Assembly (NCBI GenBank): GCA_044892505.1
Contig: CM097883.1
Location: 216,380,001-216,444,000, forward strand
Origin: Schmidtea nova
Lineage: Eukaryota
DNA length: 64,000 bases
Direction of reading: 5' to 3'
The stretch's first letter is position 1; each line of letters begins with the position of its first letter. Shown one piece after another: positions 25,090 through 44,535 of this stretch. The position numbers and the translations under genes were made by a program. The notes beneath the pieces were generated by a model, which was not told the DNA's origin, made no database searches, and saw only the letters and a program-made list of their open reading frames with translations.

Positions 25090-25659
25090 TTATACAATTT
25101 GCTCGATCGTCTGGCTCGCTTGGGGTTGAGTTCGGGTCCTCTCGTTGATTATTTGTAGCTCGTAGTGGGTTTGGATGTGGTTGAGGTGGCTCCTTATTCG
25201 TCTTTGAGCTCGGTTATCTCGTCTGGAGGTTTGGTTGTAGATTTTCTGCTTTTGTTTTAGGATCTTTATTCTATATGAGGCAATTAGGATTGTGATTGCG
25301 ATGATAGTTGTGCTGATTGCTAGGATTATGATGATTGCTATGATCCATTTTTCTTGATATTCTATTTCAGCTTGGGATAGGCTTTTTATGGGCTCTCTAC
25401 CTTCTTTCAGGATTTTTCGGGTTTCTTTTAATTTCAGTTGTTGGTTACCGAAGATTTGTTGGATTTGATGATCTTGATTGTAGGGGTATTTCTGTCGGAA
25501 TTCGTTGATTTCTTTAATTACTTCTTCGATTAGGCTGTCTACTTTCTGGTAGATTTTGTCGGGTAGAACTCGTAATTGGGTTTCGGTTAGTTGTAGATCT
25601 TCTCTCTGTAGGGTAATGGTTGTTAACCATAGGAGTGTTGCTATTGCGAGCTTTCTCAT
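25090..25659 (-). CDS. Type I membrane protein (~189 aa), last accessory gene of the retroelement
   Basis: Signal-like MRKLAIATLLWLTTITL from ATG 25659 (the ORF-track start at 25692 is GTG); TM WIIAIIIILAISTTIIAITILIASY followed by basic residues. Confidence 0.7.
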   Translation of the reverse strand: MRKLAIATLLWLTTITLQREDLQLTETQLRVLPDKIYQKVDSLIEEVIKEINEFRQKYPYNQDHQIQQIFGNQQLKLKETRKILKEGREPIKSLSQAEIEYQEKWIIAIIIILAISTTIIAITILIASYRIKILKQKQKIYNQTSRRDNRAQRRIRSHLNHIQTHYELQIINERTRTQPQASQTIEQIV

Positions 25660-25734: not shown

Positions 25735-26796
25735 TTATACAAGGGTTTCGTTGGGTTCGTGAAAACCTTCGTCTTGAGGTTCCACCTGATTTATGGGGAG
25801 TGGCATCCATATTACCGTGCTCCTCCACATTTCGACTTCTTCTCGGTATGTGTGGGATATCTGGATCTCTTCATCTAATAAGTATTCCAGATAGTTCGCT
25901 TGTTCTGTTAGGGTTTCAATTTGTTTTTCTAGTTCTGCCAATTTTTTCTCTCTCTCTTCCTTCTCCATCATTTCGGTCACTGCTGCTGTGATACTTGTTT
26001 CTTTTATTGGTGTTGGTTTTTCTGCCAACTTCTTTCTCAGTTCTTCGTTTTCTTTTGTCAAATTTGTTATGTTCTCTTCATAACTCTGCCTCGTTTCTTC
26101 CAGTCTTTCTTTAGTTCTTTTTAATTCTATTTTCTTCTGGGTGATCACTCCTTGATATCCATTTATGTCTCTTTTCATGTTTTCTTCCTTGTGATTCCAC
26201 ATTCCGGTCAGCATACCTTTTAATTGTTCTTGATTGGCTAAATCTTTTCCCATTCTTTGTACTTGATAAGTTAATTCTTTTATTTTCTTGGCTTGTTCTC
26301 TGATAAATTGTTGTCTTTTCTTACTCCATACTTTATTTGACGCTTCTTGACTGATCTTTTGCCCTAATTCCTCTTTTAATTCATCGATCTCTTTAAACAG
26401 TTTCCAATCATCGCTGTACGCTGTTCGTTCTATTATCTCCCTTGCTTCCTTGTAAGAGTCTTTTGCCTCTTTCTTCCAATATCTTGCTTGTTCTGTGATT
26501 GACTGAATCTTATGGTCTGTTTTTATTTGTTGTCTATCCCTATCCTCTCGTCGCTCTTTCATCATCTCTTTGTAGTATTCGTTTTGTTGTCTTAGCAGTT
26601 TGTAGACTTCTTCTATTTTTTCTCGACTTCTTTGATTTGTTTTCTCGGCTTCTCTTAGTGCTTGGGTTTGTCTTTCCAATTCCTCCTGTTTTCGATAATA
26701 GACATGAATCCATATCCCAGTCCGCTCCATGTGATTTCTGATCATTTCGTCTTGATGTACTGTTACTTCTTGTAAGGTTACTTCTATATTTCCCAT
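25735..26796 (-). CDS. 353-aa long coiled-coil accessory protein
   Basis: Intact ORF rich in E/K/Q/R; starts MGNIEV; AATTATAG-AA-ATG context. Confidence 0.75.
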   Translation of the reverse strand: MGNIEVTLQEVTVHQDEMIRNHMERTGIWIHVYYRKQEELERQTQALREAEKTNQRSREKIEEVYKLLRQQNEYYKEMMKERREDRDRQQIKTDHKIQSITEQARYWKKEAKDSYKEAREIIERTAYSDDWKLFKEIDELKEELGQKISQEASNKVWSKKRQQFIREQAKKIKELTYQVQRMGKDLANQEQLKGMLTGMWNHKEENMKRDINGYQGVITQKKIELKRTKERLEETRQSYEENITNLTKENEELRKKLAEKPTPIKETSITAAVTEMMEKEEREKKLAELEKQIETLTEQANYLEYLLDEEIQISHTYREEVEMWRSTVIWMPLPINQVEPQDEGFHEPNETLV

Positions 26797-26909: not shown

Positions 26910-28286
26910 TTACGCCAACCATCCTTTTCTGTCTGTTTTCTCATGCCTCTCCATCTCTATGTATAGCGTGTCTGCATATAGTCGCTCCCATAGGTTTTCT
27001 TTCCTTATAAACATTGGTTCTCCTGCTGCTAGTCCGCATTCTGTTGTTGGTTTTTCGCTCGTACTCGTATGTTTGTCTGTTTCAAAGAACTTTTCTACTG
27101 GTTTTCCCATACTTTTGATTCTTATAATGACTCCTACTTTCAAGGGCCATTCTATTAGGTCATCGTATTCTCCTTTACATAGCGAGAAAAATATTGACAC
27201 GTGTGTTCCTTGTCCTCTTCCGTCTCCATTTGGGTATACTTTCAATCTTATTTTAACCCCGTTTTTCCATAAATAAAATGGTGGGCTTATTACTGCTGTT
27301 TTAGTCATATTTCTGGCTTCTGCTAGTTTGTCTCTGAAATCTGTTATTTTCCATAAGTAAGGTGCGATTGGTAAGTCCCTTCTTTCGTCAATTTCTCGTA
27401 TTAATTGATTATATTGTATTTTCATTCCTTTTCCTAATTCTTCTATGGCTATTATTTTCTTTTCCATTCTTTCGCGAGTTAGTTCAAACTGCTCTCTTGT
27501 TTCTAGTAGTAAACTCATCATTATCTTATGTGATTCTACTTCTTTTTCTAATTTCTGGATTGTCTGTTCCGTTTCTTTTGTCGTTTCGTTTGTCATTTCC
27601 ACATGCGTTAGTGCTGCTTCTTCTAGGTGTTGTTTCATTGATTGCCGCGTCCGCTTTTCTTTGCATCCCTGTTTGTTATATGGACATTCTCTTGGTCTTT
27701 CGGTACATACTTTCCAATGTTCATGTAACTTTACTTCTTCTGTTATTTCGCAATTGTTTGGACAGTTACTTACATATTGTCTGCATACTTTCTCCTCTGT
27801 TATATTCAAGTGTTCCTCTTCGATTTTTCTCCTCGTTTCTCGAGTTTCACAATACTCGCATGCGATTTCTTCTTCTTTACATTCTTCCTTGTGTTGTTCT
27901 CTCTTCTTTAGAGTTATTGTCTGTTGGCATTTCTCGCATTCGGCTCTCTTTTCCTCGCATTTTTCCATATGGTTCTCCAGATTACTTATTTGTCCTTGCC
28001 ATGTACAAGGTGTATTTACGCACTCCGTTGTGGTGCTCATAATTTCTCTTTGGGTTGCTTTGTCCGTTCTGGTTTCGTCCAACACTATTCTTCCTTCCTT
28101 ACATTCTGGGCATGTTGTTATTCCTGTTGCATCTAATTCTTGTATACATTTTGTACATATTCTACATCCACATATCGTTTGTCTGGGTTCTCGTAGTAAA
28201 TTATTACATTTCCCGCAGGTGAGCCTCTTGCTCCATTTTCTGTTTTCTAGTCTCAAAATTTCGATTATTCGTTCTTCTCTGTCCAT
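26910..28286 (-). CDS. Intronless TRAF-family protein (RING, TRAF zinc fingers, coiled coil, MATH); most like the TRAF2/3/5 type
   Basis: RING CGKC...CGCRICTKC...CPEC; zinc fingers such as CTWQGQISNLENHMEKC and HWKVCTERPRECPYNKQGC; MATH YLWKITDF...SPPFY...YPNGDGRGQGTHVSIFF...GEYDDLIEWP. Confidence 0.92.
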   Translation of the reverse strand: MDREERIIEILRLENRKWSKRLTCGKCNNLLREPRQTICGCRICTKCIQELDATGITTCPECKEGRIVLDETRTDKATQREIMSTTTECVNTPCTWQGQISNLENHMEKCEEKRAECEKCQQTITLKKREQHKEECKEEEIACEYCETRETRRKIEEEHLNITEEKVCRQYVSNCPNNCEITEEVKLHEHWKVCTERPRECPYNKQGCKEKRTRQSMKQHLEEAALTHVEMTNETTKETEQTIQKLEKEVESHKIMMSLLLETREQFELTRERMEKKIIAIEELGKGMKIQYNQLIREIDERRDLPIAPYLWKITDFRDKLAEARNMTKTAVISPPFYLWKNGVKIRLKVYPNGDGRGQGTHVSIFFSLCKGEYDDLIEWPLKVGVIIRIKSMGKPVEKFFETDKHTSTSEKPTTECGLAAGEPMFIRKENLWERLYADTLYIEMERHEKTDRKGWLA

Positions 28287-28379: not shown

Positions 28380-28736
28380 CTATGGCTCATTCGTTGAATC
28401 TGGTTCCGCTTCGTTGTTTAGTCTATTTATTACCCAACTCATCCATCCTTCTTCGGATTCTTCTCTTTCTCCTCGTGTTAAATGGTTTATTTCTATTGCT
28501 TGTCTTTGATTGATATTGCTTATATTTTGATTTTCTCTGGTGAGCTCGGTTATCACTCTTTGTTGTTCTTCTATTCTGTGTAATTGTTCGAAACAGTTGT
28601 TATAACTTTCTGATAATAACATTTGTCTTTCCGCTAATTGGTTCTGTAATGAGTTGACTGTTCGTACTAATAAATCACATTGTGCCTTCCATCTCATAGC
28701 CATAGTTATTTCAGTTGTTTCGTCTTGTTCGTTCAT
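28380..28736 (-). CDS. 118-aa coiled-coil accessory protein
   Basis: Intact ORF between pol and TRAF; AATTTAG-AAA-ATG context. Confidence 0.7.
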   Translation of the reverse strand: MNEQDETTEITMAMRWKAQCDLLVRTVNSLQNQLAERQMLLSESYNNCFEQLHRIEEQQRVITELTRENQNISNINQRQAIEINHLTRGEREESEEGWMSWVINRLNNEAEPDSTNEP

Positions 28737-28860: not shown

Positions 28861-31800
28861 CTATACCATCATTATCGTCTTTTCCTCGTATCGTTCTTCA
28901 TCTTCTATTTGTTTCCAGAATTCTTTACCTTTCGTTCTTCTTTGGAGTTCTTGCTGTATCTCTTCTGGTATTTCTATTCTTTGCTTCATAATTTTAATAT
29001 CTGGCCATTGTATGGCTGTCGCTTTGTTTCTCTTTCTGTATCTCCCATATATTATCATGCTTGTCGTCATTATCCCATATGCTATTAATATTCCTATACT
29101 GATTAATCCTATTACTGTTTTTCCACGGTTTGTTGCTTTGATTTTATTCTGATTCGCTTTTATCTCATTTTGGGTTTGAGCCTCTGGCTTCTTCTCCTTC
29201 TGTACTTGATTCTTGACTTTGTTCATTACTTCTTGTGTAGACCAATGGCGATTTAGTAGTTGTTTGACGTTATTTTCTTTTGTTCGGTTTTCCACGTTTC
29301 CTGGTTCGATCTGTTGTTGTAGTTTCTCTGAGATCTGATATAATCCGCATTCTGGTTTTTCTGAACCTTTTCTAGTGAAGGTACATATCGCGTATGTCTT
29401 ATTTACTTCCATTTTCTTTAATTCGACTTTTTCCTTATTCCCTGTTTCTTTACAGTGGGTTAGGTTGCCTTCTTCTCCTTCTGGGTTATGCTTTGTCCAA
29501 CATATTCCTTTCACTGTTTGATCGAGTCCTGTTAATGTCAGAGTTCTTTCTGTTTTGGTTAACTCTTCTTCGTCGAATTTCAGTATTTCTCCTTTTTGAA
29601 ATGTCTTACAATGCTCTATTCCCTCTTGGATTCCTTTCTCCCAGATACATATACTTCCTTCTTCATTCATTTGTATTTCTTGTATTTCGATTTCCTTGTT
29701 TGTTTGTGATTCGTCGCTTGTCTGAACTTGGTATTCCTTCCTTGGTTCGTTGTATGTTCCCCAGCATAGTTTGTTGCTGCTTGTTTTTCTTATTGTTATG
29801 GCCATTTGTTCTATTATTATTCCTCTGTCAAAACGTTTGGACATTGCTATTATTAACGCTATGCATACGCACTCTTGTTGGGGTGATGTTCTTTCTCTCG
29901 TGTTATTGGTGCTTTTCTCCCCTTCTCCTGGTTTATCCGTTGTGTTTCTTATCTGAGTTGCTGGTTGATCTATGGTGTTTTTGATTTCTTTCTTTGTTGG
30001 TTTTACTCTATACCATTCGAGTCTAGGCGTTTCGTATTTTTGACATACGACTGTCTTAGGTAGCCCCGACTTCTTTTCCTTTCCTATTATGCATATCCGA
30101 TGCATGATTCCTCTGTCCATCCCTTCTATTCGTACTATATCCTGGTCGGATTTTCTGATTATACATTTTAGTGGGTTATCTTTCCCAATTGGTTCATCCT
30201 CTCTATTCCAGCATATTTTCTCGACCTCCTGGACATTTACTATTTTTATCCCTGCTTGTAGGTTTGTTGCTTCTTCCCTATTGATTAACGTTAGTATTAT
30301 TGTTAGACCCAACCATTTTGAACTCTGCGGTAGGCTTCTGGTTCGCCTTTCATATTTTTTCTCTTCTCCTTTAATCTCTTTTATTTCCTTGTCTTCGTTG
30401 TTTATTCCTAGTTTTCCGCTTTTTGTTTCTTTCTTATTTGTTTCTTCTCGTGCTTTTTCTTCTAGTATTTCTACTCCATGGCTTGTATTATCTATATTTA
30501 GCCATTGGGTTGTTGATTTTCTTGGGTTTATCTTGCGTATCCATATAGCTGATAACGCGATTATTACTGGTATGGTCGCTGTTAATATTCCTAAGCCAAT
30601 TAGTTCTTTAATTTCTTTATTCTCGTCTGTTTGTATAGATTCGCTTTGGTTGAACATTATTCCGTATTGTCCCTTTAGTTTTCTCATTAATTGTTCTCGT
30701 TCCTCTTGTTTTCTTTTGACTTCTTTGATAACTTCTTCAGGTGTCCATTTTGCTTGAGGATCGGTTATTATTTTTTCTGCGTCCATTTGTTCATTCGTTT
30801 GGCTTAGTTCCTTGAATTCGAGTTTCCTTGCTACTCCTTTTGATGTCGCGTTTGCTGGTGTATAGTAGGTTTCGCATCTTTCTTGTTGGTTTCCTAGTGT
30901 GTTCATTTTTTCTATTGTACATACTTCATACTCGCTATTAAATTGTAGTTTTTCGATCCTGATTTCTTTATTTGTTTTTCTGCACTCTCTTGATTGTCTT
31001 CTTATATGTTTCTGGACTATTATCCAACATATTTCCAATGTTTTATTCTCTATTTTCCATAATGTTAGAGTTGCTGATGTCTTTCTCTCGGGTTTTGTCG
31101 TAACTTCCTGGCTTATTGGTTGTTTATTGCTTTTAAAGGTAGTGGTGTACTTCGGTTTTCCTTTGTTTCGTTGTTTCCTTTTATTTTTCCGTGTTAACGT
31201 TTTGGTTCTTGTTCCGGATGAAGTCGTATGTATTCCGCATTCTAGGTCGTTTATCGTTATCTGATCATTTTTCTTTACCAAACATATTTCGTAGGTTTGT
31301 TTACTTTCTAAACCTTTTATTTGAATCGTCGTTGTTCCTGTGTTTGTTCGACATTGTGGTGTCGTTCTTTTATTTACTTCTTTTTCGTACTTCCTCCAGC
31401 ATACTCCTTTCACATTTGGTTCTATCTCTTTTATTTCTAATGTTATGTTTACTTTCCGCTTGATTTGTTTATTTCTCTTCCTCGTTCTCCTTCGGAACTT
31501 TATTACCTCTCCAGGTTGGAATGTTTTACATTTTGTGGTACCTTTCTTGTTCCTCTCTTTCTCAAGTAGGCATAGTTTGTACATCTTGTCTGCTCTTACT
31601 TCGGATACTTTAATTACTTTGTTTGTTGTTGGCTTTCGACTTTTCCTTATTTCGTTTACGCCGATTTCTTCGTCATTCCTCGCCCAACATTTTATGTTAG
31701 TGTTCTGTGTATCTTCCACTTCTGTTATTGTCATAGTTTCAATTTCTATTCCTTCCTCTAATCGTTTTATTATTATTAGTATGAGTGCTAAGCATAATAC

Positions 31801-34800
31801 TTCCATTTGGTAAGACACTCTTTCGGTTTCGTTTGTGGCAACTCTTGCTTCGGGCCTCTTTATTGTAATTCGTATAGTTGGTGTTGTTTGCTTATCTATT
31901 GCCTGGGGTTTTTTGTTTTCTGTTCCCTGTGTCTCTGTTCTTCCACATTTTCCGAGGATGTAATCTCCTTTGGGTGACTGTTGTATTGTCATGGCTGCTT
32001 TAGGTGTTTGGTATTTTGCACATGCGATTGTGTTGTGTGATCTTGGATGCTTTTGTTTTCTAACGGTGCATATTTTGTACCAGGTATTTAGATCTAGGTC
32101 GTTGATCTCTATGATTTCTTGCTCGTGTTCTGAGATTCTGCAATCCATCGGGCTATTTTGTTCCGTGATTTTGTCCTTTTTCGACCAACATACTCGTTCG
32201 ATTCCCTCTGCGTTTTTTATTTGTATTATTGCCCTTTCTTCACATGTCATTCCCTGACTTGGATTAATTAACGTTATAATCATTGTTAATAATAGTAATT
32301 CTGGTTTGAAGAATGGTTTTATGGTTGATTTATAACCTGTTCTTTGGGTGTCATTTTTATCTCCTTGGTCGTTTTTTCCTTGTTCTCCATCTTCATCTCT
32401 TTGTTTTTCGTCTTCACTTTTCTTTTCTTCCTTGTCTCGTTTCTTGTCTTTTCTCTCGTTTTCCTCTTTATCGGGTGGTTCGTGATCGTTTGAATTTTCT
32501 GAGTTGTTACCGTCGTCACTATCTGTATTGTCATCTCCCCCTGGCTCGTCGAAAATGTCGTCCTCGACATTGATTTCTTCTATCAATTTTGCATATGCTA
32601 ATGTCGTTAGGTTACTTGCCTCAAATTCTTGTGTTTCTACCTGCTCCGGTATTACTTTGTTAGTGGATTTATATTCCAAGATTTCCTTTTTGGCCTTGAT
32701 CCAATTGTTGATGTATGTCTTCATCAATTCTTTCCATTTGCCTGTGTATTTTTCTTCTTTCGGGCTGGTTGTGATTCTTAGATCCTTTCTTTCCATAAAC
32801 ATCTTCAATATCTCTGGCCATTTATACGTTATTAGGGCACTTCTTATACACCAGTTCTGGTTATGTTCTGTAAACTCATTAATCCTGAAAGCTGGTTCGT
32901 TTGTATTCGGGTTGATCCACGTGAGTATTGATTCTGTTAGTTCGACATTGTGCATCATTGTCAATACACTGGGTTTCTTAATTGTTTTGGTTAGGTATTC
33001 TATTTCTTTCTGGTTTGAGACGGTTTTAATGAAACTGACCATTTCCCAATTGTGTGTTAATAATGCTACATCCAATATTGAATTATCTTTATCTGTTTTA
33101 CCTGTAAGTCCTGCACCTGCTTTGTATAGTTCTTCTAATACCTTTGTTTTCGTTTTGGCCCTTGCTGCAAATACCATAAGTGTATCTCCTTTCTCGTCTA
33201 CCCTATTCATATTGCTTCCGCAATTTAGCATTACTCGTGCAATTTCCATTACTTTTCTATCTTTGCCATTTCGTAAAGCTCTATGTATGGGCATTATTCC
33301 GTCCTTTGGTAGTAAAAATGTTACTGGCATCTCCTTTTTTATAGTCGTTATATCGTTGCCATTGTATGTTCCTTTTGCGTATGCGTGTACTTTTTCAACT
33401 AATGCGCCGAGTATTTCCAGTGCATGTTTACTATTCTCGAATTCCGGTAACAATTCTTTTGCTTTTTCTTGTATCGCATCTAGTCTAGCTTGGTATGGTG
33501 CTTCTGCTTTAAAGAGTGGTGTGAGTTTCTTGTTACTTTCTCTTTCTTTTTTCTCTAAAACCTGTTTGCATTTTTCGGGATGGTTTAAGATTTTTACTAA
33601 TTCCTCATATTCGCTTACTATCGTCTGGTATTTCTCGTTAAAATTGTTTATGTCTTTGTATGTTATTAGTTTATCAAGTGGTTTCGCACACCATTTCCTA
33701 ATCTTGTTGAATAAGGCATTCTTTTCTTTATCGAATTGATGTTCTTCTTCATTCTTTGTGATGTTTATGTTTCCTCTATCTAATAAGGTTAGTAATGTCT
33801 TCTGATCACAAGTAAATTTCAAAAGGTATCTTAACAGTGCGTTTTGTCCTTCGCTGTATACTTCGTTTATGTCTAAGACCCATGTATCATCTTCTGGTCG
33901 TTTCCATTTGACTAACTTACGGATCGTGTTGCATTTACCAATTTTGATTGCCTCTTTGATAATGTCTCCTTTAACTAGTTCGTCTATCTCCCAAGTGGAG
34001 TTAGCTATTATGTATTTCAGCATTGGTTGGTGAGAACTCCATATTACGTGATTTAGCACTGTTTTGTCTTCTCTATCTCGTTCTGTCCAACTGAAATGAG
34101 CTTTTATCAATAGATCTATCATTTCTTTATCTGCTTGGTGGATTGCGGCTGTCATTAATGGAGTTTCTTGTTCCCGATTCCCTACGTCCAAGTTTTGGTT
34201 TGTTTCTTTTGCGATTTTTAGGAATTCTTTTGCTCTTTCAATGTTTTTACACTCTATCGCATTATGTAAGGCTGGTTGTCCTCCTACATCTTTCAATAAG
34301 AGTATTTCAGGGATTTTTTCCAATAATTCAGAAATAATTGGTTCGGTTGGTAATCCTTGTGCGTAACGGCTAATTATATGTCTAATATCCCTTGATATGC
34401 CTGCTTCGTCTCTAACATGCCATCTTCCCATTATCTCTCTCGCCTTCAATATGATTTCTTTATTTCTGATTTCTTTTTGCCTTATTTCTGCTTTGTCGTC
34501 TTCAGTTGCATTAGCTCTGAGCATATTTATCCTGGCTGTTTGTGATCTAGTTATTATTCGATTTTCTGGTGTTGTAGTTATCGTTTTAGGCACCTTCTTA
34601 CATCTGCAGGTGTTTACATATATGGGTCGTATTAAGGGTCGATTTATTAGCTTAACTTTGACATTATTGTCCTTTTTGTATATAATTTCATAAGGTCCTC
34701 TTCCAGGTCTTTGGAGTTTCTTAACTGTTCCTGGTATTATTTCGGGAGTTTCTATTATCACCCAATCTCCTGGTTTTAGATCGTTCGCTTTAACATTTTT

Positions 34801-35136
34801 CTTCTGGTCGTGTAAGTCCTTATAACTTTCCTGATAAAATTTAATGTTGAGTTCTGCCGTTTTCCATATTTCCTGCATTCTTTCTTTGAATTTGGTTACG
34901 TAGTCGTCATCTTCCATATATTGCGATAATGGTGGCTGATACTCTAAATCTATGGGCATGTTGCATTCTCTTCCATACATAAGTTGAAATGGGCTTAGTT
35001 TTGTTGCTGCATGTATCGACATTCGGTATGCCATTAAACATAATTTTATGTATTCGTCCCAATCAGTCTGATGTCTGCTGACGTAATTTGATAACATTCT
35101 GATCAATGTACCATTGAATCGCTCCGTTTGTCCATT
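28861..35136 (-). CDS. 3' part of retroelement Pol: integrase C-half, ankyrin repeats and two FN3-like membrane modules
   Basis: NGQTERFNGTLIRML carries the catalytic E; GPY motif RPGRGPYEII; ankyrin-like units at ~34290-33030; repeated W...C...I-x-x-L...Y-x-I-C domains, signal-like segments and two TM helices. The first 23 aa of the ORF-track entry come from the Maverick TIR. Confidence 0.9.
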   Translation of the reverse strand, partial: NGQTERFNGTLIRMLSNYVSRHQTDWDEYIKLCLMAYRMSIHAATKLSPFQLMYGRECNMPIDLEYQPPLSQYMEDDDYVTKFKERMQEIWKTAELNIKFYQESYKDLHDQKKNVKANDLKPGDWVIIETPEIIPGTVKKLQRPGRGPYEIIYKKDNNVKVKLINRPLIRPIYVNTCRCKKVPKTITTTPENRIITRSQTARINMLRANATEDDKAEIRQKEIRNKEIILKAREIMGRWHVRDEAGISRDIRHIISRYAQGLPTEPIISELLEKIPEILLLKDVGGQPALHNAIECKNIERAKEFLKIAKETNQNLDVGNREQETPLMTAAIHQADKEMIDLLIKAHFSWTERDREDKTVLNHVIWSSHQPMLKYIIANSTWEIDELVKGDIIKEAIKIGKCNTIRKLVKWKRPEDDTWVLDINEVYSEGQNALLRYLLKFTCDQKTLLTLLDRGNINITKNEEEHQFDKEKNALFNKIRKWCAKPLDKLITYKDINNFNEKYQTIVSEYEELVKILNHPEKCKQVLEKKERESNKKLTPLFKAEAPYQARLDAIQEKAKELLPEFENSKHALEILGALVEKVHAYAKGTYNGNDITTIKKEMPVTFLLPKDGIMPIHRALRNGKDRKVMEIARVMLNCGSNMNRVDEKGDTLMVFAARAKTKTKVLEELYKAGAGLTGKTDKDNSILDVALLTHNWEMVSFIKTVSNQKEIEYLTKTIKKPSVLTMMHNVELTESILTWINPNTNEPAFRINEFTEHNQNWCIRSALITYKWPEILKMFMERKDLRITTSPKEEKYTGKWKELMKTYINNWIKAKKEILEYKSTNKVIPEQVETQEFEASNLTTLAYAKLIEEINVEDDIFDEPGGDDNTDSDDGNNSENSNDHEPPDKEENERKDKKRDKEEKKSEDEKQRDEDGEQGKNDQGDKNDTQRTGYKSTIKPFFKPELLLLTMIITLINPSQGMTCEERAIIQIKNAEGIERVCWSKKDKITEQNSPMDCRISEHEQEIIEINDLDLNTWYKICTVRKQKHPRSHNTIACAKYQTPKAAMTIQQSPKGDYILGKCGRTETQGTENKKPQAIDKQTTPTIRITIKRPEARVATNETERVSYQMEVLCLALILIIIKRLEEGIEIETMTITEVEDTQNTNIKCWARNDEEIGVNEIRKSRKPTTNKVIKVSEVRADKMYKLCLLEKERNKKGTTKCKTFQPGEVIKFRRRTRKRNKQIKRKVNITLEIKEIEPNVKGVCWRKYEKEVNKRTTPQCRTNTGTTTIQIKGLESKQTYEICLVKKNDQITINDLECGIHTTSSGTRTKTLTRKNKRKQRNKGKPKYTTTFKSNKQPISQEVTTKPERKTSATLTLWKIENKTLEICWIIVQKHIRRQSRECRKTNKEIRIEKLQFNSEYEVCTIEKMNTLGNQQERCETYYTPANATSKGVARKLEFKELSQTNEQMDAEKIITDPQAKWTPEEVIKEVKRKQEEREQLMRKLKGQYGIMFNQSESIQTDENKEIKELIGLGILTATIPVIIALSAIWIRKINPRKSTTQWLNIDNTSHGVEILEEKAREETNKKETKSGKLGINNEDKEIKEIKGEEKKYERRTRSLPQSSKWLGLTIILTLINREEATNLQAGIKIVNVQEVEKICWNREDEPIGKDNPLKCIIRKSDQDIVRIEGMDRGIMHRICIIGKEKKSGLPKTVVCQKYETPRLEWYRVKPTKKEIKNTIDQPATQIRNTTDKPGEGEKSTNNTRERTSPQQECVCIALIIAMSKRFDRGIIIEQMAITIRKTSSNKLCWGTYNEPRKEYQVQTSDESQTNKEIEIQEIQMNEEGSICIWEKGIQEGIEHCKTFQKGEILKFDEEELTKTERTLTLTGLDQTVKGICWTKHNPEGEEGNLTHCKETGNKEKVELKKMEVNKTYAICTFTRKGSEKPECGLYQISEKLQQQIEPGNVENRTKENNVKQLLNRHWSTQEVMNKVKNQVQKEKKPEAQTQNEIKANQNKIKATNRGKTVIGLISIGILIAYGIMTTSMIIYGRYRKRNKATAIQWPDIKIMKQRIEIPEEIQQELQRRTKGKEFWKQIEDEERYEEKTIMMV

Positions 35137-36241
35137 AGTAGACAGAAGTGTGCACCATGAGTCATCGCAGAACAAAGGAAATGACGTCATCGATGAGTCA
35201 TCCATGACCCCCCCGATGACTCATAAATGACGTCATCGATGACTCATAAATGACGTCATCGATGACTCATAAATGACGTCATCGATGACTCATCGATGAC
35301 TCATCGATGACTCATCACATGACTCATCGATGACTCATCGATGACGTCATCGATGACTCATTTCAAATTTGAATTTTATGACGTCATCGATGACTCATTT
35401 CAAATTCAAATTTTAAATTTAAATTCCCAAGGGTCCGATAAGGTCAGACCTTCAAACAAGGGTATCATTCGAAAGGTCTTTTAAAGGTCTATCCAATGGT
35501 CATACCCTCGAGGGTGTATGGAGGATCCTTAACCTTCAAAGGGGTCAAAAACCTTCAACCTTTTACAATCCTTATAATATACATATCAAACAAAAGGTAA
35601 TTGGGAGGTAAGTAAGATGGTCATACCCTCGAAGGTGTATGGAGGATCCTTAACCTTCAAGGGGTCAAAAACCTTCAACCTTTTACAATCCTTATAATAT
35701 ACATATCAAACAAAAGGTAATTGAAGGGTGCACACAATGGTCATACCTTCCAAGGTCTATGGTGGGTGCTCAACCTTCAAAGGGTACAAAACAAGGATAT
35801 AAAGGTAAGTACGGTTTTCTTAATGACTCATCAGTATGACTCATTGGGATGACTCATTAGTATGACTCATCAATATGACTCATCAGTATCACTCATTGGT
35901 ATGACTCATCAGTATGACTCATCAGTATGACTCATCAGTATGACTCATCAGTATGACTCATCAGTATGACTCATCAGTATGACTCATCAATAAATATTAA
36001 CAAAGACAATGCAATCCATGTGCAAAGAAACAAAGACAATGCAATCCATGTGCAACGAAACAAAGACTAATGAAATATAATATTTAATAATAATAATTTT
36101 GTACAGAGATAAATTGTGTGTGTGTGTGTTTAAGACAAATCACAGTACTCATTGAACGCGCGTGAAACGCGCGTTCTTCTTCCTTGTTTTATAAGACAAA
36201 TCACAGTACTCATTGAACGCGCGTGAAACGCGCGTTCTTCT
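35137..36241 (+). repeat. Left TIR (at least 1105 bp) with internal tandem arrays
   Basis: Reverse complement of 51834-52916, differing by one extra 23-bp unit and a 7 versus 8 C run. Contains 11-13 bp TGACTCA/TGACGTCA arrays, ~120-bp direct repeats and two ~58-bp repeats. Confidence 0.95.
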
Positions 36242-36258
36242 TCTTCCCTTGTTGTTTA

Positions 36259-36295
<37 letters not shown>

Positions 36296-36299
36296 TTAT

Positions 36300-36902
36300 T
36301 TATTTATAAATATATTGTTGCGAACGTGTACAAAATTTGGATTCAAAATTATTACTACTAGGAATATTATTCATAGGAACATTATTTACAGGAATTTTAT
36401 TCTTATTAATATTCTCTAACCTTATCGATGTTGCCAATATCAAGATCATTATTAATATGAATAAACTTATGTAATGTAAAACTATCGATGTTTTTTCGCT
36501 TTCAACTGTCTGATTTTGGTATCTGACTTCATATTGTTTTTTAACAATTGTTTGATTCGTACATTTCAAACTTTCAACAATTTTCATCATTATTTTCAAC
36601 ATTATTTTTTCCATTTCTTTATTAATCAAATCATTTTTTGAAGGACATTGTAATTTTATTTTGCTAATTATTTTTTCAATATCATTATTATTAATCAAAT
36701 TATTTTTTGAAGGACATTGATCACATTGTAATTTTATTTGATTGCATTCAGTGTTTGAGTAAACACATATTTCATTATAACTCGCACAAGTACTATCTTC
36801 TCTTCTAAACGGATGGGTTGATTGGCAAGCTTCTAAAGCCTGTTCTCCATCAGTATTTTGAACACACAATAAAAATACAAACATGGTTATAAGCAGTTTC
36901 AT
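36300..36902 (-). CDS. Maverick cargo: signal peptide, Cys-rich ectodomain and TM (~200 aa)
   Basis: MKLLITMFVFLLCVQNTDG from ATG 36902; internal duplication IKLQC(DQC)PSKN(N/D)LIN; TM IVLHYISLFILIMILILATSI. Confidence 0.7.
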   Translation of the reverse strand: MKLLITMFVFLLCVQNTDGEQALEACQSTHPFRREDSTCASYNEICVYSNTECNQIKLQCDQCPSKNNLINNNDIEKIISKIKLQCPSKNDLINKEMEKIMLKIMMKIVESLKCTNQTIVKKQYEVRYQNQTVESEKTSIVLHYISLFILIMILILATSIRLENINKNKIPVNNVPMNNIPSSNNFESKFCTRSQQYIYK

Positions 36903-36967
36903 TTTAAATAAATACAAAATAAAATAAAAAACTAAATTTGTTCATAGTAAAATTTATTAAATAACAA

Positions 36968-37384
36968 TTAGGCGTATCGTGCATTATCAACTCTCCAAAT
37001 TGGAGTTGTCACTTCCTTTTTATCAACCTTGTATCCTTGAATGATTATCGTAACGAACCAGTGTTCTTGATCAATGAAATCGATTGTTTGATAAGCATTA
37101 TGGAAACGAGTCTTCCTGTTATTGATATACATCGTTTCTTTACAAATTAAATTCACATTGATTTTTGAAAATACTCTATTTAGTGCGATAATATCCTCTT
37201 TATCAATAATAATAGATAGACTATCATACAACGACTTTGTTAATTTTACGGGATAAGATAAGCGAAACGGAATTTCTTCTACCAAGAAATAGATTCGGCT
37301 ATCATAATACATCTGGACTGGTTTCACCTCAGTCGGGAATAATCTTTCTTCGCTGACATCATAACCTCGTTTTCGTGAATCCAT
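36968..37384 (-). CDS. Maverick hypothetical protein (~138 aa, probable start MDSRKRG)
   Basis: Intact ORF; the region upstream of it is conserved in element B. Confidence 0.6.
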   Translation of the reverse strand: MDSRKRGYDVSEERLFPTEVKPVQMYYDSRIYFLVEEIPFRLSYPVKLTKSLYDSLSIIIDKEDIIALNRVFSKINVNLICKETMYINNRKTRFHNAYQTIDFIDQEHWFVTIIIQGYKVDKKEVTTPIWRVDNARYA

Positions 37385-37927
37385 TTTTATAAATTGTGAC
37401 AAATTTGTAGAAATGACTTTGTATTTATAGTGAGGACTGGATGCCTTTGTCCAATCACAATCATGCATTTGTATTGCACACGTTATACATGTCTTTGTTG
37501 TAAGTGTGTGTGTGTTGTATATGTTCAAGTAATAAGCTTTTGCATATAAAAACCATAACAAAAGATGTACTGATAGTAAGGGTCTGTAAGTGGATAAAAT
37601 ATTTATTTATATCACAATAATTTATTTTACAATAATTTTTTTTATAAAAAATACTATTTTTAACCTTGGTAAATAAAAAGTTTAATAATTACTCAAAGTT
37701 AAAATAATTAATTAAATTCATAATAATAATTTAAAGTTAAATAAAAAATTATTAATAACTATTACTAAAAACTATTAAAAAACTAAAACTATTTCTTAAA
37801 AAACTGTTACTTAAAAAACTAAAAAACTAATACTAAAAACTAATAAAAACTAAAACTGAAACTAAAAACATTTATTAATATGAAAAACCTAAAAAATCAC
37901 TGTTTACAAATACACACAAATTGATAA

Positions 37928-38476
37928 TCAATGTTCTTCAGGAACTCGGTGACATTCGTCACAATCTGGAGATTCGGGAGACTCCATCGGCTCATCGGAT
38001 TCGATTGGATATGGCCCATCTAGAGTTGGGCAATCAGAATGAGCCGGACAATCTGTAGAATCCATCGATTGATCCGGAGTTGAATTTGGCCATGGCTCCT
38101 TGATATCTTCTTCCTCAATTGTTTCCAGCTGCGAATCGAATTCCTTCAATGCGTTTCTGAGAACCCAAATGTGGTATTTTCGGATCCTCTCGACACAATG
38201 ATCGCATTGATAAGCGCATAATATATGCTCAGCAATGACGGGCAAATCATTGTGGATATTGGCGATATGATCCAAAATTATTTTATTGAGATCGATGCCG
38301 GTCAGCATTTGAATCTTGTACGGCAGAATTTCTGGTGCCGTGTATGCCAAGGTAGGCATTAATTTCGGGAAGATTTCTTCGAGCTTGCCCAGGACCACGT
38401 TCATCAGTTTTCCTGAAAAAGAAATAATATTAAATTTGAAAAAAGATTAATTAAAATCTTTACCATTTTTAATCAT
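37928..38476 (-). CDS. Maverick hypothetical protein with a CxxxCxxC motif; exons 38476-38464 and 38412-37928
   Basis: A 51-nt GT-AG intron joins MIKNG in frame to KLMNVVLG; CAYQCDHC; S/P/D-rich tail. Confidence 0.6.
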
Positions 38477-38670
38477 ATTTTCTTCTAAGCACATTTTTAA
38501 TTCTAAATTATGAGAGAATGTTCTTAGTATATATACGATAGAAACACACATCATGTACGAAATGAACAACTTTCAACCAATAAGAATAAAGTATGCACAA
38601 CATGTCTTTATTCTATCGATACACACTCGACCAATCAGAATCGTGCATTTCCATTGCATGAATATTGCAG

Positions 38671-39138
38671 TCATGAGTCACATGTTAGTATGAAATCAAC
38701 AAAGGCTTTATCTTCTATAATTGATTTTATATCGTTAATAATATTATCAACTATATTAGTATAGTCTTTATTTTTTAATCCTAATATGACTACTTTACCA
38801 CTAGCAAAAATATTGACACACATTGGATTATATTTTGTATATCTTAAAGCTGGAAATAATTCTGGTTCATAAACACATGGAATCAATTTAGATAACTCAT
38901 TTAAATTACAAATAAATCCTAAATCTGCAGTCACAGTTATCGATTGTATTGTTAAATCGTGAGACTTTACTTTTTCATCACTAATAAATTCCTTGCATCC
39001 CATTATTCTATATCTGCCTGTCTTAAAGTATATTATTGGGTATTTTCCACTTCTATCTACAATTTGCTGTGGTTTCCCAGTTGGAAATATCATGTGCGAC
39101 ACATCTGTCTTACCCTTGTAATTAATGTTTCTAATCAT
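38671..39138 (-). CDS. TATA-binding-protein-like protein (155 aa)
   Basis: YEPELFPALRY...NIFASGKVVILGLK matches the TBP second-repeat signature YEPELFPGL...LIFxSGKVVxTGAK. LTIQSITVTADL and IIYFKTGRYRIMG match the inter-repeat strand and the first repeat. Confidence 0.82.
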   Translation of the reverse strand: MIRNINYKGKTDVSHMIFPTGKPQQIVDRSGKYPIIYFKTGRYRIMGCKEFISDEKVKSHDLTIQSITVTADLGFICNLNELSKLIPCVYEPELFPALRYTKYNPMCVNIFASGKVVILGLKNKDYTNIVDNIINDIKSIIEDKAFVDFILTCDS

Positions 39139-39224
39139 TATTAAAAATATTTTAAATCTAACAACAAAGAGATAATTAATATTTTAATCAATATAAACAA
39201 TAATACTAATAAATAATTACAAAC

Positions 39225-39848
39225 ATGGAATTAAGAAATGATGCAGTTTATCAAATTGTCGGTCCGAGCGGGAGCGGAAAAACTTTATTTGTTTGTAAAT
39301 TATTACAATCTAAATTATTCAAATCAAAATTTAATAAAATTTATTGGCATAGGGGTGCTGACGACGAAAGCGGAATGACTCAAGATCAGTTTTGTAAAAT
39401 AAAAATGACAATCATAAAAGGTTTCGATAAAAACTGGTCATCTAGATTAAGAGAAGGGGATGTGATTATTATTGATGACTTGTATCAAGAAGCAAATAAA
39501 GAAAAGGATTTTAATAATTTATTTACGAAAATCGCTAGACACAAAGGTGTTACAGTTATTTTTATTACTCAGAATTTATTTCATCAGGGTGGTAGTCATC
39601 GAACTCGTAATTTAAATGTTCAATATCTTGTTGTTTTTAAAAATCCTCGTGATGCAACAGTTATTGATTTTCTGGCAAGACAAGCTTATCCTTCTAATCG
39701 GAATTTCTTGATTGATGCGTTTCAGGATGCTACAAAATCTCCTCATGGATATCTTTTCTTGGATTTTACGCAACAATGCAGTGATGATTTAAGAGTTAGA
39801 ACTGATATTTTTAACAAGGAAGGAGCCATGGTTTATAAACAAAGTTAA
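39225..39848 (+). CDS. Maverick DNA-packaging ATPase (FtsK-HerA/A32 type)
   Basis: Walker A GPSGSGKT, Walker B IIIDDL, ARHKGVTVIFITQN, VVFKNPRD. Confidence 0.93.
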   Translation: MELRNDAVYQIVGPSGSGKTLFVCKLLQSKLFKSKFNKIYWHRGADDESGMTQDQFCKIKMTIIKGFDKNWSSRLREGDVIIIDDLYQEANKEKDFNNLFTKIARHKGVTVIFITQNLFHQGGSHRTRNLNVQYLVVFKNPRDATVIDFLARQAYPSNRNFLIDAFQDATKSPHGYLFLDFTQQCSDDLRVRTDIFNKEGAMVYKQS

Positions 39849-39868
39849 ATATATTTACAGTAGTAATC

Positions 39869-40405
39869 ATGTTAATGAAATCTAGAGTAAAGTTTGAACG
39901 CTTGATAAAGGCAAGAAAAACAATGAAGAAAACAAAGAAAACAAAGAAAACAAAGAAATCAGTTTCGAAACCCGTTTCTAAAACAAGTTATACTCCTTCG
40001 AAAAAACTAATTATGGATAATTTTCCCAAACAAAATCAAATTCCCCCTATTTTGAAATCTAATCCGAAACAAATACATCATCGGAGTTTTCCGTTTTTTA
40101 ATGCATTGCTAAAAGCCCCCAGTGCTAGAAGAATGGGTATTCTTCAGTCGTTTCCCAATTACGTCATTGATGATTTACTCGCTATTTTAATTAAAGTCGT
40201 ACGAGGTAAAATGAATCTAACTCCTTCTAATCGTCGGGTTTTGAACAAGCATAAAAAACCATTGTTATCACTTGTAAAAACAAAAAATAAAAAACTTATG
40301 CGTAAAATAATATATAAACAACAAGGAGGGTTTATTGCTGCATTATTACCCCTAGCTTTATCGTTATTAGGTGGTGCTGGTTTATTGGGAAAAAGAACGT
40401 CATAA
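39869..40405 (+). CDS. Basic core protein with an adenovirus pX/mu-like C-terminus
   Basis: Very K/R-rich; ends KQQGG|FIAALLPLALSLLGG, similar to adenoviral pX MRGG|xLPxLIP. Confidence 0.7.
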   Translation: MLMKSRVKFERLIKARKTMKKTKKTKKTKKSVSKPVSKTSYTPSKKLIMDNFPKQNQIPPILKSNPKQIHHRSFPFFNALLKAPSARRMGILQSFPNYVIDDLLAILIKVVRGKMNLTPSNRRVLNKHKKPLLSLVKTKNKKLMRKIIYKQQGGFIAALLPLALSLLGGAGLLGKRTS

Positions 40406-40408
40406 ACA

Positions 40409-40621
40409 ATGGGTCAATCATTACCTAATTTAAATTTAAACTTTAAATCTTCTTGTTGTAATGGAGAAGATCTGGACGAACCCGAAAGACGAAGCCGGTT
40501 TCGGTGGAGTCGAAAAGTTAAGGAAAAAAGTACAGAAGTCGAAACAACAGACACAAAGCTGGTTATCGGGGCAACTTGCATACAGTCTAAACAAACCGAT
40601 GCTGAAACGGTTTCCAACTAG
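40409..40621 (+). CDS. Possible small myristoylated protein overprinted on the integrase 5' end
   Basis: MGQSLP...SSCC; ATG 3 nt after the upstream stop; overlaps integrase in another frame. Confidence 0.4.
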   Translation: MGQSLPNLNLNFKSSCCNGEDLDEPERRSRFRWSRKVKEKSTEVETTDTKLVIGATCIQSKQTDAETVSN

Positions 40622-41505
40622 ATCATATAAAACGTATAGAATCAATGATTTGTGGCAAATGGATTTGATGGAAATGATTCCGTATTCAAAAATTAACAAG
40701 GGATACAAGTATATTTTAACATGTATTGATGTTTACAGTCGTTTTGCGCGGGCAATCGCAGTAAAATCGAAATCTGGTAATGATATGGCAATCGCGATCA
40801 AAGCAATGATCAAAAAGGATCGTCCAACAAATTTACAAACCGATTTGGGTAAATTTTAATTATAATTTATTGATTTAATATTTTTTAGGTAAGGAATTTT
40901 ACAACAGTAAAGTCAAGGAAGTTATCAAGGGAATCAATCATTATTCGGTATTCTCGCAATTCAAAGCCGCTCATGTCGAGAGATTTAATCGTACATTACG
41001 AGATCGGCTCAAAAAATATTTTGTACATCAAGGTAATAAAACATGGATTAATGTTTTACCACAAATGATCCATAGTTATAATCATTCTGCTCATCGAGGT
41101 ATAAATGGCAGGAAACCTGCAGAAGTAGTTAATACTGAAAATATCGTGAGTGATACAATAATCAAGAAACCGAAATATAAAATAGGTGATCATGTTCGAA
41201 TTAGTAAAATTAGTGCATCGCCATTCATTAAAAATTTTGATAGTAATTGGAGTGATGAGGTATTTAAAATATCGAAGGTCAACACAGTCCAGAATCCTGT
41301 CATGTATACTATTTCTGACTCTGATAACAATATAGTCAGTGGGAAATTCTATGAACAAGAATTACAAGTTATACCTCCACCTACAATATTTAGAATTCAA
41401 AAAATATTGAAAACTAAAATGGTAGGTAAGGATAAACAATACTATGTCAAATGGCATGGATATAAAGAACCATCATGGATATCGTCAAAAAACATAGTAA
41501 AATGA
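40461..41505 (+). CDS. Maverick retroviral-like integrase with C-terminal chromodomain; exons 40461-40848 and 40889-41505
   Basis: WQMDL (D1); QTDLG|KEF (D2, joined across a 40-nt GT-AG intron); HVERFNRTL (E); chromodomain YYVKWHGYKEPSWI. Confidence 0.93.
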
Positions 41506-42518
41506 ATTTTTATATGATTCTACCTAGCAATAGTTGCCCGAATATCCATCCAGATAATACCGCAAGTAAATTCATGGTCAATTTGCAAAATCCTATTTAT
41601 TTACAAGGAAATTGGGAAGTTGCTCTATTGGATTTTACATTTGTTTACCAACCTTTTCCTTATTATAGTCAATGTAAAATTTTTTACAATAAAATAAGAA
41701 CGACTGTTGCATATGCATTTTTCTCGATATATAATGATAGTGGCGAGCTTAATGTTCCAACTCACACTATTGATCCAGATATCGAAATGCGGTATAGAAG
41801 TGGCAGAATTCTTCTCACATGTAATTTTCTTCCTTATACAATTACATTTAATAATCTTGATGATGCAAAACGAATGGGAAGTAATAAACTGACATTCACA
41901 TGTAATGAAGAAGAATGTGAATTCAGAGTTTTGCAAAAAGCTGGTAGCAAAGATGAAGAAGTATTTAATTTCAGTATATCTTATAATAGAGATGAACGAC
42001 ATGTATTCACGTTCAAGAATGACTTGTATATAACGCATCTAGATGAATTACAGAAATATATTTCCGATAATTGTTCGGATATTTTTACTATTGTTGAATT
42101 AAATAAATTGTTCAAATTCAAACTAAAAGAAAATATTTCTAATGTGAGATTTGATAAATACCTTGTCCATACATTGGGATTAGATAAGGATACATTTAGC
42201 GGTAAAAATATCGTTTCTGGTGTTCGTCAACCGAAAATATCTAAGCTTCATCAGCAATTATTCATATACAGTAACATTATCGAACCGATAATTGTTGGAG
42301 ATTCTTTGGTTCCTTTACTGAAATCGGTATGGATCGAAAAATACGAGGTAGATGAAATTGTTCAAATACAAATAGAAAATCCAATGTATTTATCGCTTTC
42401 GAATTCATGTATAAACAATATAGAAATAAATATCAGGGATGATATTGGAAGATTAATAAACTTTCCAAAAGATTCAAAAACTCATTTAACTCTACATTTT
42501 CGAAAAAACGATGAGTAA
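41502..42518 (+). CDS. Maverick minor capsid (penton-like) protein
   Basis: FYMILPSNS...NTASKF...L-x-G-x-WEVAL at the N-terminus and LFIYSNIIEP...GD...LL...Y...I.INIRDD.G...F...THLTLHFRK at the C-terminus; ATGA overlap with the integrase stop. Confidence 0.88.
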   Translation: MNFYMILPSNSCPNIHPDNTASKFMVNLQNPIYLQGNWEVALLDFTFVYQPFPYYSQCKIFYNKIRTTVAYAFFSIYNDSGELNVPTHTIDPDIEMRYRSGRILLTCNFLPYTITFNNLDDAKRMGSNKLTFTCNEEECEFRVLQKAGSKDEEVFNFSISYNRDERHVFTFKNDLYITHLDELQKYISDNCSDIFTIVELNKLFKFKLKENISNVRFDKYLVHTLGLDKDTFSGKNIVSGVRQPKISKLHQQLFIYSNIIEPIIVGDSLVPLLKSVWIEKYEVDEIVQIQIENPMYLSLSNSCINNIEINIRDDIGRLINFPKDSKTHLTLHFRKNDE

Positions 42519-44108: not shown

Positions 44109-44158
44109 GCAGAGCTCAAACAGTATAAATAACCAAAGTTATTATTATTATTATAATT

Positions 44159-44535
44159 ATGGAGTAAGTTTTTAATTGAATAATTATTTATTTTTAATTA
44201 GTTCTATTCAGGTATTACAACAAGGTAAAAAACTATTGGGAAACCAATTTCTTGGAGTTTTTCCGTTAGATAAAATTCCTTATTTGAAAATGAATCAAGC
44301 CATCATTGTAAATACTCACACTTCTACTTTGGGCGGTGAACATTGGATTGCGGTTTACGTGAAACCGGATCGAATACATGTATTTGATCCCTTTGGATAT
44401 TATTATCCAAATTTACTTGTTCGAAAATTGCAAACTATTGGTAAACCTATTGTGTATAATAGAATTCGGTATCAACATCCATTAACAATCACTTGTGGAC
44501 AACATTGCCTTGCATGGCTAAAATCTATGTTATAA
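44159..44535 (+). CDS. Adenain-like cysteine protease; exons 44159-44163 and 44202-44535
   Basis: Catalytic H (GEHWIAV), D (FDPFG) and C (TCGQHC). A 38-nt GTAAGT...TTAG intron gives the start MDSIQVL. Confidence 0.9.

Follow-up and report, generated by a model that had tools for sequence, protein, structure and literature searches.

An open reading frame (ORF) in a 64,000-nucleotide stretch of the genome of the planarian Schmidtea nova (hereafter the window; contig CM097883.1, positions 216,380,001 to 216,444,000) encodes two homologous modules, each combining several compact repeat units with a transmembrane (TM) helix and a short tail, at what is, judging by its sequence, the end of the pol gene of a giant gypsy-type retroelement. 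The units probably adopt a beta-sandwich like that of fibronectin type III (FN3) domains, as suggested chiefly by a structural model, and the resulting FN3-TM modules are, within the scope that we searched, an apparently unreported feature of giant gypsy-type retroelements. Giant gypsy elements with an Env are regarded as proviruses that interfere with the apoptosis and ubiquitin pathways of their hosts (main text of PMC6431247). The known cargo of such elements is intracellular, Env excepted; if our reading is correct, receptor-like proteins encoded behind the integrase would carry this interference to the surface of the cell, or else into the attachment of particles. As the overall explanation we favour, at slightly under an even chance, captured and long-retained surface glycoproteins that act on host signalling.

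Two modules and their seven repeat units

The modules lie in an ORF at 28861-35220 of the minus strand (2119 codons from stop to stop), which opens with 28 codons of Maverick sequence, continues with the C-terminal portion of an integrase and a pair of ankyrin blocks, and contains no reverse transcriptase (RT). The features of the module region are:

32356..32568, minus: acidic and charged low-complexity linker (sequence)
32266..32298, minus: H1, internal signal-like stretch of 11 hydrophobic residues, followed by a small-x-small cleavage-like site
32002..32250, minus: FN3-like unit A1, four core Cys and one more (unit alignment)
31768..31800, minus: H2, run of 11 hydrophobic residues that is in register with H1, H4 and H5; cleavage-site match poor
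31516..31749, minus: FN3-like unit A2, three Cys (unit alignment)
31222..31455, minus: FN3-like unit A3, very basic linkers on both sides (Pfam fn3 E 0.071, under cut-off)
30856..31077, minus: FN3-like unit A4 (unit alignment, pattern)
30538..30603, minus: TM-A, with a helical stalk motif ahead of it that is common to module B (hydrophobicity)
30316..30537, minus: predicted cytosolic loop or tail A, with basic residues and a QW motif (32% identity to tail B)
30283..30315, minus: H4, internal signal or signal-anchor-like stretch
30025..30267, minus: FN3-like unit B1 (Fn3_Dep-1_1st E 0.097, under cut-off)
29839..29871, minus: H5, run of 11 hydrophobic residues that forms a helix outside the sandwich in the model
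29596..29823, minus: FN3-like unit B2, three Cys, low-confidence sandwich
29332..29559, minus: FN3-like unit B3, six strands matching FN3 strands B-G
29044..29118, minus: TM-B (hydrophobicity)
28861..29043, minus: predicted cytosolic tail B, QW motif, stop codon (tail alignment)

Formal alignment establishes modules A and B as homologous, with 30% identity over 360 columns (blastp, E 1.6e-43) and a Smith-Waterman score of 452; 300 full shuffles reached at most 99, and 300 local (10-aa) ones at most 121. The tandem duplication proposed in a preliminary description, which was made from the letters alone, is thus real, and all 10 of the peptides that it had paired, along with both QW motifs, were recovered in place in this ORF. 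That description had also counted seven domains with a common motif. Seven units are indeed present, distributed unequally with four in module A and three in module B, and all 21 of their pairs reach z of at least 3.2 in an all-versus-all comparison. The best partners are A1-B1 (z 25-28), A2-B2 (z 15) and A3-B3 (z 14), with A4 lacking a counterpart in module B. Three Cys and one Trp are invariant across the seven units, but the Tyr of the quoted motif is retained in only five, as is the fourth Cys, which is absent from both A2 and B2. When all six frames of the window are scanned, a pattern derived from the units matches seven times, always inside the FN3 region, and it never matches in 5000 shuffles; having been written from the units themselves, it is circular by construction as a test. 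In the tree of the seven units none of the four inner branches is starred, and the A2+B2 grouping alone stands at 89/85; given these weak inner branches, we make no claim as to the order of duplication. Cysteines are regularly spaced and account for 2.7% of the FN3 region, in comparison to 1.3% of the integrase-ankyrin part; two disulfides are probable.

Both modules terminate in a TM helix (aa 1540-1561 and 2035-2059) followed by basic residues, and their tails are 32% identical. Where module A has very basic linkers, module B has acidic residues or nothing corresponding. We also observed a W-[TS]-x-[EQ]-E-V stalk motif conserved ahead of each TM (30747 and 29244, minus strand), which is reminiscent of the opening helix of a SAM or Myb domain and may serve as an oligomerisation helix.

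Identity between the modules at the three codon positions is 0.53/0.61/0.47, where 0.32/0.28/0.36 would be expected; 44 of the 107 identical residues are encoded by different codons, and blastn recovers only short patches of similarity at the DNA level. Together these figures point to an old duplication maintained at the level of the protein. The FN3 frame has no stops in 1147 codons, the other two frames having 127 and 55. The fraction of A on the sense strand is 0.49 and 0.47 in the modules and 0.41-0.45 in gag, pol and the TRAF gene of the element, in contrast to 0.30 in an exon of the host SF3B3 gene and 0.33 in the PolB gene of a Maverick in the same window. These observations bear on the possibility that chance alone joined the region to the integrase, be it as a host gene from next to the element, as a neutral passenger or through an error of assembly. 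This possibility draws on the fact that a single copy was seen, in a broken element, with no relatives in the protein collections searched; yet a single intronless open frame runs from the integrase to the last tail, the strand bias is the A-rich one of the element and unlike that of SF3B3, the codon-position pattern signifies protein-level constraint, and the low DNA identity between the modules rules out their duplication in assembly. Hence, we consider this origin very improbable.

With respect to the fold, an AlphaFold2 model of unit B3, built with the seven-unit alignment, has six strands at a mean predicted local distance difference test (pLDDT) score of 73. Its best matches among 48,161 solved chains are FN3 domains of fibronectin, Dscam and tenascin (Z 7.8, root-mean-square deviation 2.1 A, 70 residues aligned, identity to the matches at most 17%), and 48 of the 50 matches listed are FN3 domains or FN3-derived scaffolds, going by their titles or by what the proteins are. 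The Leu-to-Tyr spacing before strand F is likewise that of FN3. Residues 1-12 of the model fall under a pLDDT of 50, leaving strand A of the seven-stranded ABE/C'CFG sandwich of FN3 unmodelled, and only about six residues are available for this strand in A1 and B1; the units may thus form an FN3-like sandwich that dispenses with strand A. A language-model search placed FNDC5- and FNDC4-like FN3-plus-TM proteins first (0.82 and 0.81), which we treat as a lead; a second such search, with B2-B3, was weaker, with low recognition, unnamed bacterial clusters first and fn3 at 0.76. The domains had earlier been likened to the FN3 of leucine-rich repeat (LRR)-FN3 receptors, a link which our comparisons do not bear out: no LRR-FN3 receptor domain occurs among the 50 fold matches listed, the best of which are generic fibronectin, tenascin and Dscam FN3 domains, and the language-model list has a single Lrrn4cl cluster (0.79, rank 19).

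Several results count against the FN3 assignment. The best Z of 7.8 lies below the caution level of the tool, 8, such that the match could reflect a common arrangement of strands; Foldseek with B3 returned nothing at E<=0.001 and ranked immunoglobulin (Ig) V domains of T-cell receptors first, with FN3 rows mixed in; the model of H5 plus B2 is poor (pLDDT 53), with mixed Ig and FN3 matches at Z up to 6.7; and the Pfam fn3 family is found in one of the seven units (E 0.071; 13.7 bits against a cut-off of 25), behind chance hits. Fn3_Dep-1_1st, too, is found under cut-off in one of the seven (E 0.097), while unit profiles gave one chance hit each against PDB sequences. The earlier suggestion of FN3-like beta-sandwiches is sustained to a moderate degree. 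In relation to animal FN3 proteins such as fibronectin, tenascin, Dscam, the cytokine receptors and the FNDC4/FNDC5 type, the modules have in common strands B-G, tandem domains, a TM and a short tail; they differ in lacking a modelled strand A, in having two probable disulfides and in showing no sequence match above cut-off.

The giant gypsy-type element around the modules

The remainder of the element extends to both sides of the modules and is interrupted by a Maverick:

55885..63702, minus: Gag with three CCHC knuckles, then a long accessory region, an internal signal peptide (~58100-58160) and a TM-bearing fusion glycoprotein of Env type; 2605 codons between stops
53936..56002, minus: protease, RT and start of RNase H (RVP 9.1e-7, RVT_1 3.8e-37, RT_RNaseH_2 3.1e-24), in a frame that differs from Gag-Env
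52917..53951, minus: remainder of RNase H, followed by the zinc finger of the integrase and the opening part of its core (Integrase_H2C2 3.3e-21, rve 5.6e-12), truncated by the Maverick
35137..52916, no strand: Maverick/Polinton of 17.8 kb, inserted into the integrase core (AG...CT ends; terminal inverted repeats of 1.1 kb that are 98% identical)
34591..35136, minus: integrase C-terminal part, opening the FN3-bearing ORF (33% identity to P0001 1171-1346, E 4e-27)
33016..34269, minus: two ankyrin-repeat blocks (~33811-34269 and ~33016-33303) with a helical region between them (Ank_2 2.6e-10 and 1.2e-7; whole ORF 1.6e-12)
28380..28736, minus: small coiled-coil accessory ORF (no Pfam family above cut-off)
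26910..28286, minus: complete TRAF (RING, zinc fingers, coiled coil, MATH) in one open frame (MATH_2 1.3e-21)
25735..26796, minus: coiled-coil accessory ORF
25090..25659, minus: small ORF with N-terminal hydrophobic stretch, TM and basic tail, the last accessory ORF (hydrophobicity; assigned to no family)

The order protease, RT, RNase H and integrase after Gag is that of Ty3/gypsy LTR (long terminal repeat) elements, and the protease-RT part is 36% identical to a gypsy Pol, P0001. The Gag-Env ORF matches zf-CCHC (2.9e-7) and Monjiviricetes_fusion (PF24664, 5.7e-71), with Retrotrans_gag (1.3e-4) and Ubiquitin_4 (0.036) under cut-offs; this mononegavirus-type Env stands between gag and pol, in frame with Gag. 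The sequences flanking the Maverick match adjoining residues of the one protein P0001 (up to 1173 on one side and from 1171 on the other), from which it follows, at the level of sequence comparison, that the FN3-bearing ORF is the 3' part of the pol of an Env-bearing LTR retroelement. The view that Pol ends in the modules accordingly stands as regards the C-terminal end of the pol gene; it does not as regards this ORF, since the RT lies about 19 kb away, beyond the Maverick. The reading frame also shifts near 55.9 kb and near 53.95 kb in this copy, for which decay, recoding and assembly error cannot be told apart. With its integrase split by the Maverick and two frame changes upstream, this copy is broken, and an RT-FN3 fusion polyprotein is not produced from it.

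We found no LTR repeat on comparing 63001-64000 with 16001-25100, nor in a self-comparison of the window, the 5' end of the element lying beyond it. CCAAT-like and TATA-like words are present at 24480-24560 (minus) and may belong to the promoter of a 3' LTR. Between Gag and Env (58200-60400, minus), two ubiquitin-like domains and a BCL2-like helix bundle were noted by eye; the segment ahead of the Env signal has no Pfam or PDB match above cut-off, Ubiquitin_4 (E 0.036) being its sole match under it. No BIR domain was found by Pfam in the eight element ORFs scanned, the 5' part of the element being outside the window, and an insert between protease and RT that aligns with P0001 has a size compatible with a dUTPase and no dUTPase match in Pfam.

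By its domain anatomy the element is Burro-like, although we do not file it as a member of that group. Burro elements are giant gypsy-like LTR retrotransposons of planarians in which apoptosis and ubiquitination domains abound, and their cargo comprises Gag, MATH/TRAF, ubiquitin-like, BCL2-like, Env, protease, dUTPase-like, RT, RNase H, integrase, ankyrin and BIR domains (main text of PMC6431247). Burro1 and Polintons are both targets of Piwi-interacting RNAs in Schmidtea, according to passages of PMC8532177. The present element shares with the Burro/GYPSM1 elements of dugesiid planarians the CCHC Gag, the mononegavirus-like Env between gag and pol, the protease-RT-RNase H-integrase series, ankyrins, TRAF/MATH and perhaps, going by a match under cut-off, a ubiquitin-like domain. 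Its summed coding span of roughly 5,500-5,700 codons compares with the 4,873 and 5,140 aa given for Burro elements (PMC6431247, main text). Its TRAF is a complete, separate downstream ORF, a position unlike that in the two cases given there, and this copy bears two frame changes and a Maverick insertion. It further differs in the FN3-TM modules themselves, the word 'fibronectin' occurring 0 times in the main text of that review, whose figure and supplements may annotate FN3. The LTR elements of bdelloid rotifers (main text of PMC5408684) similarly have captured Env-like and small TM proteins; theirs, in contrast, are separate ORFs, and 'fibronectin' is absent from the main text of that paper.

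Searches of protein collections, which may lack the repeats of the host, detected no relatives of the modules and returned no Burro sequence. There were no homologues of the FN3 region at E<=0.001 among 1,835,955,588 representatives, and none among 2451 candidates from longer proteins, the latter being weak evidence. The integrase-ankyrin part gave 12 matches among 7284 candidates, none of them with both RT and ankyrin and none with fn3. Exact look-up in the protein collections retrieved none of six proteins of the window, and no PHROGs or Rfam family matched the FN3 region. A full-text literature search, judged by titles and the starts of abstracts and with the primary Burro descriptions outside its scope, returned no paper describing an LTR retroelement with FN3 modules.

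Topology and expression of the modules

As the preliminary description had noted, signal-like stretches precede several of the units: H1, H2, H4 and H5 share a hydrophobic core of 11 residues, in each case in register ahead of a unit, and Env is likewise preceded by an internal signal while in frame with Gag. A core of 11 residues is of signal-peptide length and short for a TM. Internal signal sequences are also the sites at which the glycoprotein precursors of flaviviruses, pestiviruses and bunyaviruses are processed. The likeness to such viral polyproteins lies in hydrophobic signal-like stretches within one long ORF ahead of lumenal domains; the difference is that here they follow an RT and an integrase, with single short hydrophobic stretches between the lumenal domains. 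Taken with the expression signals below, these features make it fairly probable that the modules have an endoplasmic reticulum (ER) topology and are made by a polyprotein route, in which case Pol would become a membrane-tethered loop within a flavivirus-like polyprotein.

This topology faces three difficulties. By the classical small-x-small rule of signal cleavage, a clean site is found at H1 only, those at H2 and H4 being poor. H2 and H5 are each placed between two putatively lumenal domains, and were they to stop translocation, homologous units would end up on opposite sides of the membrane. Moreover, N-glycan sequons are not enriched (11 against 9.0 in shuffles, p 0.27). The secreted or membrane-bound products envisaged earlier remain a reasonable expectation from the paired cysteines, the signal-like stretches and the TM helices with basic tails, one to which the sequons lend no support. 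These difficulties lead to the alternative that some or all units are cytosolic, or that H2 and H5 are the sole signals, so that the domains would be intracellular interaction modules on Pol in the manner of the ankyrins. In keeping with this are the shortness of the 11-residue cores, the poor cleavage sites at H2 and H4 and the unenriched sequons; but three Cys invariant in seven of seven units, with a fourth in five, and two full-length TM helices, each with basic residues C-terminal of it, make us regard it as quite improbable.

Candidate processing signals other than signal peptidase sites were discarded. The furin-like sites that had been suggested do not hold up: R-x-[K/R]-R is absent from the 2119-aa ORF, R-x-x-R in the FN3 region is at chance level (7 against a shuffled mean of 4.6, p 0.17), the first RRTR falls inside a basic insertion specific to A, and the second, between TM-A and H4, is on the predicted cytosolic side. 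NPGP words of the 2A type are absent from both long ORFs.

The 3' accessory ORFs, in turn, have features that set them apart from the modules. Ahead of the ATGs at 28736, 28286 and 26796 stand T-rich stretches that all close with TAG, and two of these three sites match the UUNYAG acceptor motif described in parasitic flatworms (in passages of PMC12582326). All seven TGTA[ACT]ATA words of the element fall in 405 bases of spacer and none in 20,428 coding bases, whereas 2000 dinucleotide shuffles averaged 0.34 and never exceeded 4; the word was first noticed in the spacers and tested afterwards. The spacers concerned are at 28737-28860, 28287-28379, 26797-26909 and 25660-25734 (minus), with AATAAA in three of the four and an acceptor-like TAG before the ATG at the end of three. 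TGTA[ACT]ATA corresponds to the Pumilio element, and UGUA is a word of 3'-end processing as well. This organization looks like an operon resolved by 3'-end cleavage and cis- or trans-splicing. No TTNYAG lies directly before H1, H2, H4 or H5: just one of the 32 such sites in the element is in the FN3 region, inside A1, and the nearest upstream acceptor-like sites are 0.6 kb before H1. Given acceptor-like and spacer signals at the 3' ORFs and none at the hydrophobic stretches, we infer that the FN3 modules would be made within the polyprotein, and the 3' ORFs via processed RNAs of their own.

The same sites weigh on the contrary proposal that the modules are expressed apart from Pol, through spliced or trans-spliced subgenomic RNAs in which each signal-like stretch starts a protein. 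Such transcripts would remove the topological problem of H2 and H5 and agree with four hydrophobic stretches in register before units and with a Met directly ahead of H2; furthermore, the third ORFs of LTR elements typically come from spliced messages (main text of PMC5408684), and flatworm spliced leaders terminate in AUG (passages of PMC12582326). Against these stand the position of the one TTNYAG inside A1, the lack of a Met before the hydrophobic core of H1, H4 and H5, and the absence of the spacer motif from the coding bases. We therefore deem separate transcripts improbable, and the spliced transcript covering this region alone that had been anticipated finds no counterpart in the acceptor-like sites.

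Possible roles of the modules and other elements in the window

The tails of both modules contain the word [PSAT]-x-Q-x-x-[DN] 9-10 residues after the TM, which we take to resemble a TRAF-binding motif, and the TRAF of the element is encoded 0.6 kb downstream of the modules. Its best PDB match is TRAF3 (1.3e-23), and it is 24-37% identical to animal TRAFs. Because the remaining cargo of the element is TRAF, ankyrin and ubiquitin-like, and because the tails keep this TRAF-motif-like word, we favour a role in signalling, a guess to which we grant rather less than an even chance. EBV (Epstein-Barr virus) LMP1 provides a precedent for a viral receptor mimic that recruits TRAFs; it resembles the modules as a membrane protein with a short juxtamembrane Gln-containing word like a TRAF motif, and differs in that the modules are single-pass, have an FN3 ectodomain, are accompanied by a TRAF of their own and match the motif loosely.

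Accordingly, the scenario that we favour would run as follows. A Burro-like element would have captured a host cell-surface protein of compact, disulfide-containing FN3-like domains; the domain would have been amplified into a set of three or four, and an ancient duplication would then have doubled the entire signal-FN3-TM-tail module. Where the element is intact, the modules would be translated as the end of the polyprotein and threaded by H1 into the ER, in parallel to the internal signal ahead of Env, and signal peptidase and the element protease would release them from the cytosolic enzymes. The products might be one two-headed or two single-pass surface glycoproteins, with A1 and B1 perhaps shed, which would mimic receptors or act as decoys at the cell surface and so change the signalling of the host, beside the TRAF, ankyrin and ubiquitin-like cargo.

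Beside the difficulties of fold and topology given above, three observations speak against this scenario. The tail word recurs eight further times in the 4724 residues of the two long ORFs; the MATH domain of the element is unlike that of six animal TRAFs at two normally conserved stretches, SSSF-like and NIASG-like, which presumably line the peptide groove; and no intact relative with integrase, ankyrin and FN3 in one chain was found in the protein collections searched. The altered stretches suggest that the element TRAF may have a different specificity or act as a decoy.

Its principal rival is that the modules are particle attachment proteins which partner the Env fusogen in two-component entry, or which serve in cell-to-cell spread. 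Env is of the mononegaviral fusion-glycoprotein family, tandem FN3-like domains on a stalk fit the shape of an attachment protein, and the very basic linkers of module A could bind glycosaminoglycans, as basic stretches can. Additionally, a single polyprotein as in Burro1 (main text of PMC6431247) would place equal amounts of Gag, Env and FN3 on one membrane. Conversely, nothing that we found links the modules to Env directly, the basic linkers are acidic or missing in module B, and no predicted viral structure matched at E<=0.001; the reviewed Burro elements, moreover, have Env with no FN3 noted (main text of PMC6431247), suggesting that Env can work without FN3. We judge attachment to be unlikely, if less so than the other alternatives. 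A more specific possibility, also rather doubtful, is that the element emits receptor-like proteins of its own, built of disulfide-stabilised FN3 domains lacking strand A, which would signal via its own TRAF or form the attachment half beside the fusogen; we know of self-contained receptor-adaptor modules only from large DNA viruses. As the modules can be expressed alone, they offer a direct route to asking whether giant elements act outside the cell.

With regard to the rest of the window, the Maverick in the integrase core is flanked by a 6-bp target-site duplication (35131-35136 and 52917-52922), and its ORFs include PolB, an A32-type ATPase and an integrase-chromodomain protein (Pfam). It thus has the hallmarks of Mavericks/Polintons, namely long terminal inverted repeats, AG...CT ends, a 6-bp target-site duplication, PolB, integrase and ATPase. 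This copy is near-complete; its terminal repeats are rich in TGACTCA/TGACGTCA words, it has a TBP-like ORF at 38671-39183 (Pfam 9e-15), and an assembly gap lies inside it at 50985-51833. Further Maverick remnants occur at 3-5000, with a PolB (3-2120) 66% identical to that of the near-complete Maverick, and at 20198-21606, with a RING-finger ORF at 20773-21288 and, at 20198, an end that resembles a terminal inverted repeat. Two short coiled-coil ORFs, at 3569-3991 (plus) and 22213-22821 (minus), are related to each other (29% identity over 70 aa, E 2e-9) and probably of mobile origin; 17857-18387 resembles them by eye. Finally, a host SF3B3-type splicing-factor gene with few large exons lies at 10293-16721 (minus), and a 21-bp tandem array occupies ~11466-12040 in one of its introns.

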